The translations under genes and the position numbers were made by a program. From Escherichia coli (GTDB lineage: Bacteria; Pseudomonadota; Gammaproteobacteria; Enterobacterales; Enterobacteriaceae), in NCBI RefSeq assembly GCF_003019035.1, contig NZ_CP027447.1: a stretch of 64,000 nt of DNA; one strand, written 5' to 3'. Within the stretch, counting starts at the first letter, position 1. The number at the start of each line of letters is the position of its first letter. The notes under the pieces were generated by a model, which was not told the DNA's origin, searched no databases, and saw only the letters and a list, made by a program, of their open reading frames with translations. Of the stretch, positions 4,490-46,063 are shown one piece after another.

Positions 4490-4596
4490 GATCGTCTCCT
4501 TGCGGTGTGAGGTATAACAAGGGTAGACGTGACTGGCGAAATCTTCGCCAGTCGATAACAGCTTTACGACGGCTATCACGAATTTACGGGCAAGGG

Positions 4597-34923: not shown

Positions 34924-35699
34924 TGATTGTTTTACCCAGACGCCTGTCAGACGAGGTTGCCGATCGTGTGCGGGCGCTGATTGATGAAAAAAACCTGGAG
35001 GCGGGCATGAAGTTGCCCGCTGAACGTCAACTGGCGATGCAACTCGGCGTATCGCGTAATTCACTGCGCGAGGCGCTGGCAAAACTGGTGAGCGAAGGCG
35101 TGCTACTTAGTCGACGCGGCGGCGGGACGTTTATTCGCTGGCGTCATGACACATGGTCGGAGCAAAACATCGTCCAGCCGCTGAAAACGCTGATGGCCGA
35201 TGATCCGGATTACAGTTTCGATATTCTGGAAGCCCGCTACGCCATTGAAGCCAGCACCGCGTGGCATGCGGCAATGCGCGCCACACCTGGCGAAAAAGAA
35301 AAGATTCAGCTTTGCTTTGAAGCAACGCTAAGTGAAGACCCGGATCTCGCCTCACAAGCGGACGTTCGTTTTCATCTGGCGATTGCCGAAGCCTCACATA
35401 ACATCGTGCTGCTGCAAACCATGCGCGGTTTCTTCGATGTCCTGCAATCCTCCGTGAAGCATAGCCGCCAGCGGATGTATCTGGTACCCCCGGTTTTTTC
35501 ACAGCTGACCGAACAACATCAGGCAGTCATTGACGCCATTTTTGCCGGTGATGCTGACGGGGCGCGTAAAGCAATGATGGCGCACCTTAGCTTTGTTCAC
35601 ACCACCATGAAACGATTCGATGAAGATCAAGCTCGCCATGCACGCATTACCCGCCTGCCTGGTGACCATAATGAGCATTCGAGGGAGAAAAACGCATGA
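34923..35699 (+). CDS. lldR: GntR-family L-lactate operon regulator
   Basis: 258-aa product from ATG 34923 ([28 protein letters not shown]...), overlapping the lldP stop; ORF-track start 34908 adds 5 codons. Confidence 0.9.
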
Positions 35700-36886
35700 T
35701 TATTTCCGCAGCCAGCGATTATCGCGCCGCAGCACAACGCATTCTGCCGCCGTTCCTGTTCCACTATATGGATGGGGGTGCATATTCTGAATACACACTG
35801 CGCCGCAACGTGGAAGATTTGTCAGAAGTGGCGCTGCGCCAGCGTATTCTGAAAAACATGTCTGACTTAAGCCTGGAAACGACGCTGTTTAATGAGAAAT
35901 TGTCGATGCCGGTGGCGCTGGCTCCGGTGGGTTTGTGTGGCATGTATGCGCGTCGTGGCGAAGTTCAGGCTGCCAAAGCGGCGGATGCGCATGGCATTCC
36001 GTTTACTCTCTCGACGGTTTCCGTTTGCCCGATTGAAGAAGTCGCTCCAGCCATTAAACGTCCGATGTGGTTCCAGCTTTATGTGCTGCGCGATCGCGGC
36101 TTTATGCGTAACGCGCTGGAGCGAGCAAAAGCGGCAGGCTGCTCGACGCTGGTTTTCACCGTGGATATGCCGACACCGGGCGCGCGTTACCGTGATGCAC
36201 ACTCGGGTATGAGCGGCCCAAATGCGGCAATGCGCCGTTACTTGCAGGCGGTGACGCATCCGCAATGGGCGTGGGATGTGGGCCTGAACGGTCGTCCACA
36301 TGATTTAGGTAATATCTCGGCTTACCTCGGCAAACCGACCGGACTGGAAGATTACATCGGCTGGTTGGGGAATAACTTCGATCCGTCCATCTCATGGAAA
36401 GACCTTGAGTGGATCCGCGATTTCTGGGATGGTCCGATGGTGATCAAAGGGATCCTCGATCCGGAAGATGCGCGCGATGCAGTACGTTTTGGTGCTGATG
36501 GGATTGTGGTTTCTAACCACGGTGGCCGCCAGCTGGACGGTGTACTCTCTTCCGCTCGTGCATTGCCCGCTATTGCGGATGCGGTGAAAGGTGATATTGC
36601 CATTCTGGCAGATAGCGGGATTCGTAACGGGCTTGATGTCGTGCGTATGATTGCGCTCGGTGCCGACACCGTACTGCTGGGTCGTGCTTTCCTGTATGCG
36701 CTGGCAACAGCGGGCCAGGCGGGTGTAGCTAACCTGCTGAATCTGATCGAAAAAGAGATGAAAGTGGCAATGACGCTGACTGGCGCGAAATCGATTAGCG
36801 AAATTACGCAAGATTCGCTGGTGCAGGGGCTGGGTAAAGAATTGCCTGCGGCACTAGCTCCGATGGCGAAAGGGAATGCGGCATAG
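35696..36886 (+). CDS. lldD: FMN-dependent L-lactate dehydrogenase
   Basis: 396-aa [41 protein letters not shown]...; start overlaps the lldR stop (ATGA). Confidence 0.95.
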
Positions 36887-36958
36887 TTGGGGGTGAGGGG
36901 AAAAGGCCGTACCAATCACCAATTTTCTGCTATCCTGCCCCCGCACTAAGGGGGCAGT

Positions 36959-37432
36959 ATGCTAAACATCGTACTTTACGAACCAGAAATTCCGCCAAAT
37001 ACTGGCAACATCATCCGTCTTTGCGCTAATACCGGCTTTCGTCTGCATATCATCGAACCGATGGGATTTGCCTGGGACGATAAGCGCCTGCGCCGCGCGG
37101 GGCTGGACTATCACGAGTTTACCGCCGTTACGCGTCATCATGACTATCGCGCGTTCCTCGAAGCAGAAAATCCCCAGCGCCTGTTTGCCCTCACCACGAA
37201 AGGTACGCCTGCTCACAGCGCCGTAAGCTATCAGGATGGCGATTATCTGATGTTCGGCCCGGAAACACGCGGCCTGCCAGCAAGCATTCTTGATGCCCTG
37301 CCCGCTGAACAAAAAATTCGCATTCCAATGGTGCCGGACAGCCGCAGCATGAACCTGTCCAATGCGGTGTCGGTCGTGGTGTATGAAGCCTGGCGGCAGC
37401 TGGGATATCCGGGAGCGGTGTTGAGAGATTAG
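36959..37432 (+). CDS. trmL: tRNA (cytidine/uridine-2'-O)-methyltransferase (SpoU family)
   Basis: 157-aa [44 protein letters not shown]... Confidence 0.92.
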
Positions 37433-37440
37433 TTACTGTA

Positions 37441-37471
37441 TGCCGGATAGATGATTACATCGCATCCGGCA
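37441..37471. terminator. Candidate bidirectional terminator / REP-like hairpin between convergent trmL and cysE
   Basis: TGCCGGAT-(15 nt)-ATCCGGCA inverted repeat, 9 nt after the trmL stop and 14 nt after the cysE stop. Confidence 0.45.
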
Positions 37472-37484
37472 CAATCACAGGACG

Positions 37485-38306
37485 TCAGATCCCATCCCCA
37501 TATTCAAACGTATGGTTAATACCGTTGAAATGCTGATCCATATCCATTGACGGTTTATCGCTATCCGGCTTGCCGACAATGCGTGCCGGAACGCCAGCGG
37601 CGGTGGTATGCGGCGGCACCGGTTGCAGCACCACGGAACCTGCGCCAATCTTCGCGCCGCGCCCAACTTCAATATTGCCGAGAATTTTCGCGCCCGCGCC
37701 AATCATCACACCTTCACGAATTTTCGGATGACGGTCGCCACCAGATTTACCCGTACCGCCAAGCGTCACAGATTGCAGAATCGACACGTCGTTTTCAATC
37801 ACCGCCGTTTCACCCACAACGATGCCCGTGGCGTGGTCGAGCATAATGCCACGGCCAATTTTTGCTGCCGGGTGAATATCAACCTGGAACGTTACAGAAA
37901 CCTGGTTTTGCAGAAATATTGCCAGTGCGCGGCGGCCCTGATTCCACAGCCAGTGACCGATACGATAGGCCTGCAAGGCATGAAAACCTTTCAGATATAA
38001 CAATGGAGTCGAGTATTTATCCACCGCCGGGTCGCGGGTACGCACTGCCTGAATATCACAGGCCGCAGAGGCGATCATTTCCGGGTCGGCGGCGTAGGCT
38101 TCTTCGACCACTTCACGGATAGCAATAGCAGGCATAATGGGCGATGACAGCTTGTTCGCCAGCATGTAGCTCAGTGCACTGCCAAGGTTTTCGTGCTTGA
38201 GTAGCGTCGCGTGGTAAAAACTGGCCAGCATTGGCTCACAATCCGCCAGCGTTCTGGCTTCGGCTTTAATATTGTTCCAGACAATTTCCAGTTCTTCACA
38301 CGACAT
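37485..38306 (-). CDS. cysE: Serine O-acetyltransferase
   Basis: 273-aa ORF MSCEELEIVWNNIKAEARTLADCEPMLASFYHATLLKHENLG... with hexapeptide-repeat region. Confidence 0.95.
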   Translation of the reverse strand: MSCEELEIVWNNIKAEARTLADCEPMLASFYHATLLKHENLGSALSYMLANKLSSPIMPAIAIREVVEEAYAADPEMIASAACDIQAVRTRDPAVDKYSTPLLYLKGFHALQAYRIGHWLWNQGRRALAIFLQNQVSVTFQVDIHPAAKIGRGIMLDHATGIVVGETAVIENDVSILQSVTLGGTGKSGGDRHPKIREGVMIGAGAKILGNIEVGRGAKIGAGSVVLQPVPPHTTAAGVPARIVGKPDSDKPSMDMDQHFNGINHTFEYGDGI

Positions 38307-38385
38307 TGCTTACTCCACACGATGAGATAATGACCGGCCCGTTCTGCGCGGGCCGGGTCATAGTGGTAACAAAGGTTCCCTGGTT

Positions 38386-39405
38386 TTAGTGGCTACTGCG
38401 CTCGTCCTTGCGTGCACGACCTAGTAAAGTCAATGCTGCCTCGCGCGCGTTTTTTCCGCAATATAATACTTGATAAATTTCCTCGGTTATTGGCATTTCA
38501 ACGCCGAAGCGATGCGCCAGTTCGCGGACTTCTTTCGTATTGCGGTAGCCTTCCACCACCTGACCAATCTTCTCCTGCGCGCTTTGTACATCCATGCCCT
38601 GACCGAGCATCATGCCAAAACGGCGGTTACGCGACTGGTTGTCGGTACAGGTAAGCACCAGATCGCCCAGCCCCGCCATGCCCATAAAGGTGGCAGGATC
38701 GGCACCCAGCGCAGCGCCAAGACGCGACATTTCAGCCAGCCCACGGGTGATCAGTGCCGTACGCGCATTCGCACCAAAACCGATACCGTCGGACATCCCC
38801 GCGCCAATGGCAATGACGTTTTTCACCGCGCCGCCAAGCTGCACACCGATGAAATCCGGGTTGCTGTAAACGCGGAAACTTTTGCCACAGTGCAGCAATT
38901 GCTGGAGATCATCGGCAAAGGTCTGGTCGGTCGAGGCCAGCGAAATGGCCGTCGGTAAACCTGCCGCCAGTTCTTTCGCAAACGTTGGGCCAGAGATAAC
39001 CGCCAGCGGAATTTGATCGCCTAACGCCTCACGCGCCACGTCCTGCAACAGACGCCCGGTTTCCGCTTCCAGCCCTTTGGTCGCCCACACCAGACGCGCA
39101 TCAGGACGCATCAGCGGTTTAATCTGACGCAGCACTTCACCAAAGACATGGCTGGGTACGACGACGAGAATATTACGGCTGGCTGCCAGCGCAGTGGCGA
39201 GATCGCTTTCAAGATGGAGCGTATCGGGAAAAGGCACATCGGGGAGAAACGCGGCGTTACAGCGGTCGCGTTCAAGCGTTGCGATATGTTCAGGGTCATG
39301 GCCCCAGAGGACAACCTCGTGGCCATTTCTTGCCAGGGTGATGGCAAGAGCGGTGCCGTACGAGCCGGCACCGATCACAGTCATTGAAGCATTACGTTGG
39401 TTCAT
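38386..39405 (-). CDS. gpsA: NAD(P)H-dependent glycerol-3-phosphate dehydrogenase
   Basis: 339-aa [40 protein letters not shown]... Confidence 0.95.
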
Positions 39406-42581: not shown

Positions 42582-43841
42582 ATGACACGGGCCGTGAAAC
42601 CGCGCAGGTTTGCAATCAGGCCCATCATCTACGCCAGCGTTCTGAGCGCTGGCGTATTGTTGTGCGCCTTTTCCGCCCACGCGGATGAGCGTGACCAACT
42701 CAAATCCATTCAGGCTGACATCGCCGCGAAAGAGCGCGCGGTACGCCAAAAGCAACAACAACGCGCAAGCCTGCTCGCACAATTGAAAAAGCAGGAAGAA
42801 GCGATCTCGGAAGCCACCCGTAAGCTGCGTGAAACGCAAAACACCCTCAATCAACTGAATCAACAGATTGATGAGATGAACGCGTCGATTGCGAAGCTGG
42901 AGCAGCAAAAAGCCGCCCAGGAACGCAGCCTCGCCGCACAACTGGATGCCGCATTCCGTCAGGGCGAGCATACTGGTATTCAGCTGATTCTTAGCGGTGA
43001 AGAAAGCCAGCGCGGTCAGCGCTTACAGGCTTATTTCGGCTATCTCAACCAGGCGCGACAAGAAACCATTGCTCAGTTGAAGCAAACGCGTGAAGAAGTC
43101 GCTATGCAGCGTGCCGAACTGGAAGAGAAACAGAGCGAGCAACAAACGCTTTTATATGAGCAGCGCGCCCAACAAGCGAAGCTAACCCAGGCGCTGAGCG
43201 AGCGTAAAAAGACGCTGGCAGGGCTGGAGTCTTCCATCCAGCAAGGTCAGCAACAGTTGAGCGAGCTGCGCGCCAACGAATCCCGCCTGCGTAACAGCAT
43301 TGCCCGTGCGGAAGCTGCGGCGAAAGCGCGTGCTGAACGTGAAGCGCGCGAAGCCCAGGCGGTTCGCGACCGCCAGAAAGAAGCGACGCGCAAAGGCACC
43401 ACCTACAAACCGACCGAAAGCGAAAAATCGCTGATGTCCCGAACTGGTGGCCTGGGTGCGCCGCGTGGTCAGGCATTCTGGCCGGTTCGCGGGCCGACGC
43501 TGCATCGCTATGGTGAACAGCTACAGGGCGAACTACGCTGGAAAGGAATGGTTATCGGTGCCTCTGAAGGTACTGAAGTTAAAGCGATTGCCGACGGCCG
43601 GGTGATTCTGGCTGACTGGCTGCAAGGCTACGGTCTGGTGGTGGTGGTTGAGCACGGTAAAGGCGACATGAGTCTTTACGGCTATAATCAGAGCGCACTG
43701 GTGAGCGTTGGTTCGCAGGTTCGCGCGGGCCAGCCAATTGCACTGGTGGGCAGCAGTGGCGGTCAGGGTCGGCCTTCACTCTATTTCGAAATTCGCCGCC
43801 AGGGTCAGGCGGTCAATCCACAGCCGTGGTTGGGAAGATAA
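42582..43841 (+). CDS. envC: Murein hydrolase activator EnvC (coiled-coil plus LytM domain)
   Basis: 419-aa product from ATG 42582 (MTRAVKPRRFAIRPIIYASVLSAGVLLCAFSAHA...); long coiled coil then C-terminal LytM-like domain. Confidence 0.92.
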   Translation: MTRAVKPRRFAIRPIIYASVLSAGVLLCAFSAHADERDQLKSIQADIAAKERAVRQKQQQRASLLAQLKKQEEAISEATRKLRETQNTLNQLNQQIDEMNASIAKLEQQKAAQERSLAAQLDAAFRQGEHTGIQLILSGEESQRGQRLQAYFGYLNQARQETIAQLKQTREEVAMQRAELEEKQSEQQTLLYEQRAQQAKLTQALSERKKTLAGLESSIQQGQQQLSELRANESRLRNSIARAEAAAKARAEREAREAQAVRDRQKEATRKGTTYKPTESEKSLMSRTGGLGAPRGQAFWPVRGPTLHRYGEQLQGELRWKGMVIGASEGTEVKAIADGRVILADWLQGYGLVVVVEHGKGDMSLYGYNQSALVSVGSQVRAGQPIALVGSSGGQGRPSLYFEIRRQGQAVNPQPWLGR

Positions 43842-46031: not shown

Positions 46032-46054
46032 CAAAAGGGCTGGAATACCAGCCC
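46032..46054 (-). terminator. Rho-independent terminator after tdh
   Basis: GGGCTGG-aatacc-CCAGCCC hairpin 10 nt beyond the tdh stop, followed on the transcribed strand by UUUUG. Confidence 0.55.
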
Positions 46055-46063
46055 TTGTTCGTG

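Follow-up and report, generated by a model that had tools for sequence, protein, structure and literature searches.

A hairpin interleaved with the promoter and ribosome-binding site of Escherichia coli trmL as a probable insulator against read-through

The trmL gene of Escherichia coli is preceded by a compact module in which promoter, hairpin and ribosome-binding site are interleaved, and this module probably acts as a fold-back read-through insulator similar to that of IS10. Its central element is an inverted repeat beside the trmL start codon, one arm of which carries the Shine-Dalgarno (SD) sequence. Because transcription from the trmL promoter starts at position 36943 and leaves out the 5′ arm, the gene's own mRNA cannot form the hairpin, which most likely silences only RNA reading in from the upstream gene. 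TrmL acts on the wobble base of tRNA-Leu and affects RpoS translation, and a recent review lists as unknown whether TrmL itself is regulated (PMC10948607). No description of this compact and strongly conserved control module was found in the literature searched.

The window, a 64,000-nucleotide stretch of E. coli DNA analysed here, contains the lldPRD-trmL locus. The region matches E. coli SCU-301 at 100%, and lldD and trmL are annotated there. On the plus strand, the open reading frame at 35696..36886 is lldD, ending in a TAG stop codon (36884..36886), and the trmL coding sequence (36959..37432) encodes the tRNA Um34/Cm34 2′-O-methyltransferase. Both assignments rest on the open reading frame list and the SCU-301 annotation, and they agree with the gene calls of a preliminary description of this DNA. 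The two genes run in the same direction and are separated by 72 nt. Part of this spacer is a G-rich repeat remnant, GGGGGTGAGGGGAAAAGGCCG...CACCAA (36888..36923, plus strand), which aligns to the distal copy of the GC-rich repeats of K-12. Repeats catalogued between lldD and trmL in K-12 are termed ‘HPGQ’ elements (PMC5100583). The remnant belongs to the variable intergenic part, outside the conserved module, and its predicted fold is no more stable than those of shuffled sequences (z = 0.2).

The hairpin lies on the plus strand and consists of a 5′ arm, CTGCCCCC (36935..36942), a loop, GCACTAA (36943..36949), and a 3′ arm, GGGGGCAG (36950..36957). Its stem has 8 bp, seven of them G-C pairs, and appears in both the minimum free energy (MFE) and the centroid fold; covariation between the arms further supports the pairing. 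The preliminary description had thus correctly placed an inverted repeat beside the trmL ATG, although its coordinates were off by one. The 5′ arm that it gave as 10 nt has 8 paired nucleotides, the ‘GC’ falling in the loop, and the gap of 2 nt that it reported between stem and start codon is in fact the single nucleotide T36958, followed by the ATG at 36959-36961. Its statement that the only SD-like purine run, AAGGGGG (36948..36954, plus strand), sits inside the hairpin holds. This run spans the loop and the 3′ arm, with its five G in the arm, and ends 4 nt from the ATG; the G-run is near-invariant across Enterobacterales. The isolated hairpin has a predicted stability of −18.2 kcal/mol (z = −4.0), which none of 200 dinucleotide shuffles equalled. 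Perfect 8-bp GC-rich hairpins number 13 in the window, compared with a mean of 1.0 in Markov simulations, an approximately 13-fold excess.

The 5′ arm is also part of a promoter. Directly upstream of the trmL start lies an extended −10 element, TGcTATCCT (36928-36936, plus strand). Its TG (36928..36929) occupies positions −15/−14 counted from the start at 36943, and conservation of each of these two bases reaches at least 90% among 55 Enterobacterales sequences; within its −10 hexamer TATCCT (36931..36936, −12 to −7) the bases T−12, A−11 and T−7 are invariant in the same set. The 5′ arm shares the last two nucleotides of the hexamer, and the remainder of the arm (36937-36942) forms the G+C-rich discriminator. 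Our scan found no two-hexamer consensus promoter with a −35 hexamer, and the −35 region differs among E. coli genomes. Both are expected for an extended −10 promoter.

Transcription starts at G36943 on the plus strand (3781199 in K-12), the first nucleotide of the loop and thus inside the inverted repeat, an arrangement characteristic of IS10. For E. coli this position is inferred from a cloning primer for the ‘entire 5′ UTR + ORF’ of trmL, citing data of Thomason et al. 2015, rather than from a start-site table; the genomic part of the primer begins GCACTAAGGGGGCAG (Adams et al. 2021, PMC7815308). In Salmonella SL1344, differential RNA sequencing placed the primary trmL start 17 nt before the open reading frame, at the G after TATTCTGCCCCC, in the context ...TATTCTGCCCCCG. 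This is the G equivalent to the E. coli start, which lies 7 nt downstream of the −10 hexamer. Starts within the C-run would sit 2-6 nt past the hexamer, which is too close. In the published calls, one start, a G, is reported for each of the two species.

The position of the start divides transcripts of trmL into two forms that differ in their predicted accessibility to ribosomes. The mRNA from the trmL promoter has a 16-nt leader without the 5′ arm, and the folding energy calculated for the leader from 36943 (−5.9 kcal/mol, z = 0.04) is that of an ordinary sequence. Opening the ribosome footprint (36946-36971) would cost 6.7-10.8 kcal/mol in this mRNA and 16.5-22.4 kcal/mol in read-through RNA, so that the presence of the 5′ arm adds about 10-15 kcal/mol. 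Across 53 distinct Enterobacterales sequences, the mean predicted costs are 6.4 kcal/mol (own mRNA) and 16.7 kcal/mol (read-through), with a gap of more than 5 kcal/mol in 49 of the 53. Longer predicted folds suggest that the SD of the mRNA from 36943 may pair weakly with the coding sequence. In the folding models, the SD of RNA containing both arms is paired in a stable local stem beside the start codon, as expected of an SD-sequestering element, and the occlusion of the trmL SD proposed in the preliminary description is thereby supported as far as stem composition and predicted stability can indicate.

The hairpin is maintained across Enterobacterales with compensatory changes, and this holds regardless of the upstream gene. 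The neighbour may be lldD, a gene for a 446-aa protein or a CpxA-like kinase gene (the last in Yersinia, Serratia and Erwinia, among others), while the hairpin stays with trmL. Within E. coli, 5343 of 5420 genomes share a 52-bp core at 99% identity or more, although the rest of the intergenic region comes in five or more length alleles. The geometry is likewise constant among genera: the 5′ arm separates the −10 element from the start, and the 3′ arm carries the SD. The loop varies from 3 to 9 nt and its sequence is not conserved. Outer stem pairs alternate among U-A, G-C and C-G.

Several comparisons indicate that the two arms have changed together. Native arm pairs are more stable than cross-species chimeras (−15.9 versus −13.1 kcal/mol), a value reached in none of 10,000 permutations. 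In an arms-only alignment, 81.4% of cells pair, compared with 71.6% in shuffles (0/500) and at most 58% in slid controls, and the covariation score is 0.280, compared with 0.144 in shuffles (0/500); this alignment was anchored on sequence runs, and the permutation and shuffle controls leave some phylogenetic relatedness in. RNAalifold recovered no consensus structure from a plain MAFFT alignment, because the register of the arms and the length of the loop shift between lineages. A covariance model of seven pairs was too weak to be of use: it missed the hairpin of the window at E ≤ 1 and matched the palindrome on the minus strand, and its alignment was not used. The sequence comparisons thus point to compensatory change that preserves the structure of the hairpin.

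Published K-12 data connect the hairpin to the ends of upstream transcripts. The preliminary description had suggested Term-seq at the lldD 3′ end as a check, and such data show a Rho-dependent end 5 nt past the stem, at 3781218 (Adams et al. 2021, supplementary files 1 and 3). The trmL ATG of K-12 is at 3781215, so this end is the fourth nucleotide of trmL, equivalent to position 36962 on the plus strand of the window. Its Rho score of 3.68 is significant, and its intrinsic-terminator score, 1.92, stays below the threshold of 3.0. Without BCM, coverage drops from 425 in the 800-nt window upstream of the end to 96 in the one downstream; with BCM the two values are 942 and 784 (Adams et al. 2021, PMC7815308). 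A 3′ end at this distance past the stem requires RNA initiated upstream, and RNAs carrying both arms therefore exist in vivo. A Rho-termination call at 3781497 lies inside trmL (equivalent to 37241, plus strand; supplementary file 2), with upstream and downstream reads of 379 and 33 without BCM and 961 and 705 with BCM, and a score of 8.4 (Adams et al. 2021, PMC7815308). The ‘primary’ lldD 3′ end in K-12 maps to 3781065 (Adams et al. 2021, PMC7815308), where a repeat further upstream forms a hairpin; the strain studied here lacks this repeat.

The trmL site was listed in that study without explanation, and a lacZ fusion starting at the trmL start showed no Rho effect, a result that its authors describe as unexplained (Adams et al. 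2021, PMC7815308). This fusion has no 5′ arm, and the insulator model therefore predicts the observed outcome. The module would account for an apparent anomaly, the Rho signals seen at trmL in vivo and their absence from a reporter with its 5′ end at the trmL start, and if the model is true it explains the trmL result of that study. Of the first 60 nt of trmL, 17 are C and 8 are G, and this C-rich, G-poor segment is a possible Rho loading site judging from its composition.

In the mechanism that we propose, an extended −10 sigma-70 promoter would start trmL at the first loop nucleotide and yield an essentially unstructured 16-nt leader with a free SD. RNA reading through from upstream, which in E. 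coli means from lldD, would contain both arms and fold into the 8-bp hairpin that masks the SD and, depending on the genus, also the AUG. On such RNA the trmL frame would be poorly translated, become exposed to Rho and be terminated inside trmL, and the RNA would be left with, or trimmed to, a stable 3′ end shortly beyond the stem. In this way the hairpin would set the 3′ end of upstream transcripts and keep TrmL synthesis independent of the induction of the upstream operon. We infer that occlusion lowers the translation of read-through RNA, that the RNA becomes open to Rho for this reason, and that selection has acted on insulation. The 3′ end could also stem from exonuclease trimming or from Rho termination unrelated to translation, and the hairpin-containing RNAs may represent a second, regulated isoform of trmL mRNA instead of mere read-through. 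A further-reaching version holds that the module is an ancient, dedicated insulator, by which only promoter-initiated mRNA can be translated and RNA from any upstream operon (lldPRD, cpxRA or others) is silenced, handed to Rho and capped at its 3′ end; we consider the chances of this version to be evenly balanced.

If correct, the model provides a chromosomal example of a gene that follows an inducible operon and is insulated from it without a canonical terminator, the upstream operon responding to lactate in E. coli and to Cpx envelope stress in most relatives. One hairpin would serve as discriminator, SD mask and 3′-end marker. Such an arrangement could offer a reusable design rule for the independent expression of tightly packed tandem genes, and a module of about 35 nt would be portable and potentially useful as an insulator in synthetic biology.

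Parts of this arrangement are familiar from other systems. In IS10/Tn10 and IS50, fold-back inhibition reportedly shields the transposase gene from external promoters. The likeness to IS10 is close: entering transcripts hold both halves of the repeat and form a hairpin that sequesters the ribosome-binding site, whereas the element's own promoter starts inside the repeat and its mRNA, lacking the 5′ half, is translated, as is predicted for trmL. However, trmL is a conserved housekeeping gene for tRNA modification and not a mobile element, its 5′ arm doubles as the discriminator, and its 3′ arm is the SD itself. Published data also associate the trmL site with a defined 3′ end and with termination by Rho, and no antisense RNA layer is known for it. 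If the model is true, trmL would be the housekeeping-gene counterpart of the IS10 fold-back mechanism.

The pyrC and pyrD genes of E. coli and Salmonella are reportedly controlled at the level of translation by start-site switching. Here too a hairpin near the 5′ end overlaps the SD, and its formation depends on where transcription starts relative to the 5′ arm. At pyrC/pyrD, CTP/GTP pools select among starts spaced a few nucleotides apart within a single promoter, whereas the alternatives at trmL are its own promoter and upstream read-through. The left end of IS200 combines a terminator against impinging transcription with an SD-sequestering stem-loop (PMC4513863). It resembles trmL in joining a shield from outside transcription to SD sequestration by mRNA structure, but in IS200 the two tasks fall to two distinct inverted repeats, and the SD hairpin forms part of the element's own mRNA (PMC4513863); at trmL a single hairpin would do both jobs and is missing from the gene's own mRNA. 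Rho-dependent transcripts whose ends are processed to stem-loops or stabilised by them, and Rho polarity on RNA that is not translated, are known as well (Dar & Sorek 2018; Adams et al. 2021, PMC7815308); there too the 3′ end lies a few nucleotides past a stem without a U-tract. They share with trmL the rise in read-through upon bicyclomycin treatment and termination in a frame that, in trmL, is predicted to be poorly translated, but the trmL stem would also mask the SD of the gene that follows and is intertwined with that gene's promoter. Finally, a G+C-rich 8-bp stem-loop at a gene end recalls a canonical intrinsic terminator, but the U-tract is absent in E. coli and most genera, a T-run occurring in a minority such as Serratia.

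Other identities for the hairpin were considered and rejected. In E. coli it is not an intrinsic terminator: the tail TATGCTAA has three T in 8 nt, a consensus scan found none, the published score lies below threshold and the end depends on Rho. A terminator of an antisense transcript is also rejected, the minus strand after the stem reading GATAGCAGAAAATTGG, with no U-run. Each E. coli genome with the 52-bp core carries one copy of it, and the repeats at this locus are the upstream HPGQ elements, so the hairpin is not a REP/BIME or other repeat. A mimic of a tRNA anticodon arm for TrmL autoregulation, similar to the thrS operator, is not supported, since the length and sequence of the loop are not conserved. 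The E. coli loop GCACUAA shares two of seven positions with UUUAAAA/UUCAAAA, which we take to be the anticodon loop sequences of tRNA-Leu.

The preliminary description had proposed that the hairpin is the lldD terminator and that occlusion of the SD makes trmL depend on read-through from lldD. The SD does lie within the stem, lldD and trmL are co-directional and closely spaced, and RNA from the lldD side ends just past the hairpin in K-12, so the terminator part stands to this extent; intrinsic termination does not, given the missing U-tract, the low score and the Rho dependence. The coupling part is contradicted by the conserved independent promoter, which starts inside the hairpin in both E. 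coli and Salmonella. The description itself regarded an independent promoter downstream of the hairpin as evidence against coupling, and in both species the mapped start lies downstream of the 5′ arm, so that the hairpin would uncouple trmL from lldD. The SD is predicted to be blocked precisely in the read-through form, which therefore should not drive trmL translation, and the hairpin is kept in genera where lldD is not the neighbour. Dependence on lldD read-through is thus very unlikely. It is less improbable, though still unlikely, that the hairpin was selected mainly for forming and stabilising the 3′ end of the upstream gene. In some genera it would then work as an intrinsic terminator, in others as a barrier to exonucleases once Rho has ended transcription, and its overlap with SD and promoter would be a by-product of a very short spacer. 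An end is mapped at the hairpin, and at least five T in the 8 nt after the stem occur in 6 of 53 orthologous sequences (e.g. Serratia and some Pantoea), where the stem may be an ordinary intrinsic terminator. Moreover, the upstream stop codon of Erwinia, Pantoea and Hafnia lies 35-42 nt from the ATG, with no space for a separate terminator. However, the geometry has stayed the same while the sequence turned over, and it is kept even in E. coli, where spacers of up to 197 nt leave ample room elsewhere; the element goes with trmL rather than with the upstream gene, and most lineages lack the U-tract.

A controlled switch, responding to temperature, a protein or an sRNA, could act on a longer trmL isoform from an upstream promoter, for example at the lldD 3′ end or in the intergenic region. 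A filtering rule in Adams et al. 2021 (PMC7815308) implies that a start lies in the 3′ part of lldD, no more than 200 bp upstream of 3781065; in genomic SELEX, RNA polymerase holoenzyme bound in the lldD-yibK spacer; and the covariation reflects selection on RNA structure. A search with the covariance models of Rfam 15 gave no match to the hairpin at E-values up to 10, however, and a loop that is conserved neither in length (3-9 nt) nor in sequence gives no clear indication of a site for a ligand or protein. Upstream of the −10 element, the DNA is unconserved even within E. coli, which argues against a conserved upstream promoter, and we regard a switch of this kind as distinctly unlikely. Chance is the least credible account: the C-rich, G+C-rich discriminator of a stringently controlled promoter would merely happen to complement a G-rich SD, and the pairing would have no function. 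The observed pairing values exceed those of all shuffles and slid controls, native arms outperform chimeras, and pairing is kept by two-sided changes outside the C-run and G-run. In favour of such an account, the trmL promoter resembles rRNA/tRNA-type promoters, in which a −10 element is followed by GC(G)CCCC (compare rrnB P1), and in a microarray study yibK mRNA dropped along with ribosomal-protein mRNAs in a 6S RNA mutant. As a side hypothesis, the likeness of the discriminator to those of rrn promoters and this one microarray hint suggest that the trmL promoter could be under ppGpp/stringent control.

The region around the hairpin (36500-37500) is 100% identical to that of E. coli SCU-301, in which the annotated order is lldP-lldR-lldD, trmL and then a convergent cysE. 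lldD ends at 36886, trmL occupies 36959-37432, and the 72-nt spacer between them ends in ...TTTTCTGCTATCCTGCCCCCGCACTAAGGGGGCAGTATG. An inverted repeat in this spacer comprises a 5′ arm at 36935-36942 (CTGCCCCC), a loop at 36943-36949 (GCACTAA) and a 3′ arm at 36950-36957 (GGGGGCAG), with the single nucleotide T36958 separating it from the trmL ATG. The preliminary description correctly identified a repeat overlapping the trmL Shine-Dalgarno (SD) sequence, with coordinates 1 nt off; its 10-nt paired arm is in fact 8 nt, and one nucleotide, not two, lies between stem and ATG. It also rightly placed the sole SD-like run, AAGGGGG (36948-36954), within the hairpin, where it spans the loop and the 3′ arm. 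The hairpin is seen in both MFE and centroid folds, and alone reaches −18.2 kcal/mol (z = −4.0), a stability equalled by 0 of 200 shuffles.

A MAFFT alignment of 55 distinct sequences reveals an invariant T, A and T at positions 1, 2 and 6 of a hexamer, one invariant G of the SD, and a TG two bases 5′ of the hexamer that is at least 90% conserved. These columns are the signature of an extended −10 sigma-70 promoter (−15TG−14, −12T, −11A, −7T); a consensus scan of 36000-38000 returned no two-hexamer sigma-70 promoter at the hairpin. The genomic part of the trmL forward primer used by Adams et al., for a construct with the complete 5′ UTR based on the start-site data of Thomason et al. 2015, is GCACTAAGGGGGCAG (PMC7815308). 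This places the E. coli trmL start at the G located 16 nt 5′ of the ATG, corresponding to K-12 3781199 (ATG at 3781215) and to 36943 in the window. This is the first loop nucleotide, 7 nt past TATCCT. Independently of E. coli, dRNA-seq of Salmonella SL1344 assigns to yibK (trmL), whose ORF is at 3910906, a primary start at 3910889, and the promoter string ends ...TTTCTGCTATTCTGCCCCCG, the equivalent G (Ramachandran et al. 2014, PMC3963941). Because transcription begins at the first loop nucleotide, trmL's own mRNA lacks the hairpin 5′ arm, and the leader from 36943 is unstructured (−5.9 kcal/mol, z = 0.04). The suggestion that trmL expression is coupled to read-through from lldD is thus contradicted, on the ground its own proposer had named, by a promoter start downstream of the 5′ arm. 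The discriminator of this promoter (36931-36943 region) is G+C-rich and resembles those of stringent rRNA/tRNA promoters; E. coli has GCCCCC, most genera have GCGCCCC(C), and Hafnia has TATAATGCGCCCCC. In a mutant for 6S RNA, yibK mRNA decreases along with the mRNAs of ribosomal proteins (PMC2848244). trmL may be under growth-rate or ppGpp control.

A scan of TrmL relatives yielded 80 loci (L008-L087), of which 56, all from Enterobacterales, share one plan within the 45 nt before the ATG: TTTnTGnTAYnCT leads into a C-rich run, which a variable loop separates from a G-rich run and the ATG. Among the 80, this plan is absent from Xenorhabdus, Moellerella and Pasteurellaceae. The Pasteurellaceae loci L063-L068, L073 and L079 have neither the hairpin nor the −10 motif, and at several of the family's loci an upstream 193-aa ORF stops 8-9 nt before the trmL ATG, an arrangement that suggests an operonic or coupled trmL rather than an insulated promoter module. 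Every module sequence forms a hairpin containing the G-run (−9 to −24.5 kcal/mol), and its stem extends to the A of the AUG in Rahnella, Budvicia and Photorhabdus. Mimicry of a tRNA anticodon arm for TrmL autoregulation is rejected, since loop length varies between 3 and 9 nt.

The 5′ and 3′ arms are CUGCCCCC and GGGGGCAG in E. coli, GCGCCCCC and GGGGGCGC in Edwardsiella, CUUCGGCCCUC and GAGGGCUGAAG in Pantoea, GGCUCUCG and CGGGAGCC in Tatumella, and UGCGUCCCUCU and AGGGGGACGCA in Rahnella. When a 5′ half is combined with a 3′ half from a different species, the chimeras fold less stably than native sequences (mean −13.1 versus −15.9 kcal/mol), and the native mean was reached in 0 of 10,000 permutations. 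Plain RNAalifold failed on the sequences across genera because register and loop length shift among lineages. An arms-only alignment, anchored on the C-run and G-run rather than on folding, has 81.4% of cells paired versus 71.6% in shuffles (0/500) and a covariation score of 0.280 versus 0.144 (0/500), with two-sided changes in 38 cells where 19 are expected. Partner-slid controls are all far lower (at most 58% paired), and two positions outside the C-run the pair is variously U-A, G-C or C-G. These comparisons support co-evolution of the arms, with a consistent signal outside the SD, under controls that remove shared ancestry only partly.

E. coli and some Enterobacter have lldD as the nearest upstream ORF, and Citrobacter and Lelliottia have a gene for a 446-aa protein. 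Most other genera carry at this place a gene for a 457-aa protein ending ...GGLRLxLWLPLY, which, from its length and C-terminal motif, we take to be the sensor kinase CpxA (same-strand gene at L019, L023, L026 and L033-L061). Between its stop codon and the trmL ATG there are 35-90 nt, and the trmL promoter overlaps the end of its coding region. Its prevalence upstream of trmL in most Enterobacterales indicates that the E. coli lldD-trmL adjacency is derived. The same module stands beside all upstream-gene types; judged from this genomic context, the hairpin belongs to trmL and not to its neighbour.

Within E. coli, the spacer has at least five length alleles (the window versus L002-L007): 72 nt in the window, 197 nt in K-12/DH1 (where two additional G+C-rich repeats are present), roughly 153 and roughly 185 nt in further strains, and 47 nt in B2-type strains, whose lldD C-terminus also differs. 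All are identical from TCTGCTATCC... through the ATG, and a 52-bp core query occurs once, with an identity of 99% or more, in 5343 of 5420 genomes. The K-12 repeats are 'HPGQ' elements in the catalogue of Kaplan et al. (PMC5100583). Gain and loss of these G+C-rich repeats (GGGGTGAGGGG / CCCTCTCCCTCAGGGAGAGGG) underlie the length differences, and 36888-36923 is a remnant of one element.

The hairpin is not a canonical terminator. The sequence after its stem is TATGCTAA, no terminator was found there by the consensus scan of 36000-38000, and the hairpin has no Rfam match. K-12 Term-seq places two 3′ ends in the spacer: 3781065, directly past the first HPGQ repeat and classed as the primary lldD end, and 3781218, which is trmL nt 4, 5 nt beyond the hairpin (Adams et al., PMC7815308). 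At 3781218, coverage in 800-nt windows falls from 425 upstream to 96 downstream without bicyclomycin (BCM) and from 942 to 784 with it; the Rho score is significant (3.68), and the intrinsic-terminator score is 1.92 against a threshold of 3.0 (PMC7815308). A separate Rho-termination call lies within trmL at 3781497 (379/33 without BCM, 961/705 with BCM; PMC7815308). Since an RNA of 20 nt beginning at the trmL start would escape capture, these 3′ ends come from upstream-initiated RNAs carrying the whole hairpin. The hairpin had been proposed as the lldD terminator; a 3′ end does form here, but it is Rho-dependent rather than intrinsic, and the repeat carrying the primary K-12 lldD end is absent from the window strain. 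A lacZ fusion from the trmL start showed no Rho effect (1.0- to 1.4-fold), for which the authors called the reason unclear (PMC7815308); as it begins at that start, the fusion lacks the 5′ arm. The same study reports a Rho-termination region antisense to trmL (K-12 3781526; 37241 region, minus strand), which presumably ends cysE read-through into the trmL antisense strand.

For RNA from 36943, the energy needed to open the ribosome footprint (36946-36971) is 6.7-10.8 kcal/mol; for RNA with the 5′ arm it is 16.5-22.4 kcal/mol. Across 53 distinct orthologous sequences the means are 6.4 and 16.7 kcal/mol, and the gap exceeds 5 kcal/mol in 49. This contrast leads us to propose a mechanism in which promoter-initiated trmL mRNA would be translated, and in read-through RNA the SD would be masked and translation prevented. 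The beginning of trmL, rich in C and poor in G (its first 60 nt contain 17 C and 8 G), would then be open to Rho, with termination within trmL, and the stable hairpin would mark the 3′ end that survives. The mechanism accounts for the conserved geometry, for an element that travels with trmL, and for a Rho signal in vivo alongside a Rho-insensitive reporter. We infer that translation is affected, that this effect is causally linked to Rho, and that insulation is the function under selection. It is more likely that the hairpin uncouples lldD and trmL.

The hairpin might instead serve as a 3′-end stabilizer or terminator of the upstream gene, with an incidental SD overlap. T-runs in 6 of 53 sequences make this partly plausible, but it leaves unexplained both the fixed interleaving with promoter and SD and a geometry that persists in long spacers. 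Control of a regulated, longer trmL mRNA isoform seems improbable: genomic SELEX detects RNA polymerase binding in the spacer, and the filtering rule of Adams et al. implies a start at most 200 bp upstream of 3781065, yet the loop is not conserved and there is no conserved upstream promoter. Coincidental complementarity between a G+C-rich discriminator and a G-rich SD is disfavoured by the covariation.

The insulating module proposed for trmL is a further case of an already known mechanism type, closest to the fold-back inhibition of IS10/IS50. As Davis, Simons and Kleckner are said to have described in 1985, the latter shields transposase genes against transcription that begins at outside promoters. 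In IS200, a terminator that stops impinging transcription is found together with a stem that sequesters the SD (PMC4513863). In pyrC and pyrD, as in trmL, formation of an SD hairpin depends on the start site, although those genes switch among starts a few nucleotides apart. The 3′-end behaviour matches that of Rho-dependent ends stabilized by stem-loops. We found no published description of the trmL module, and a 2024 review states that whether TrmL is regulated is unknown (PMC10948607).

Perfect 8-bp G+C-rich hairpins number 13 in the window against about 1 expected, a count that includes some overlapping registers of one stem. The others, with 3-9 nt loops, lie at 4531-4553, 24053-24097, 25296-25315, 25714-25738, 26783-26806, 38334-38356, 39351-39373, 42631-42655 and 46036-46055; each is likely a terminator or a REP element, and two of them flank cysE/gpsA. 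The convergent trmL-cysE spacer holds a REP-like hairpin at 37441-37476 (TGCCGGATAGATGATTACATCGCATCCGGCA; 66-nt fold −21 kcal/mol, z = −3.9) that is probably a REP element or a bidirectional terminator; its match to Rfam naRNA4 is weak and sub-threshold (23.8 bits, E = 0.085; gathering score 59.5).
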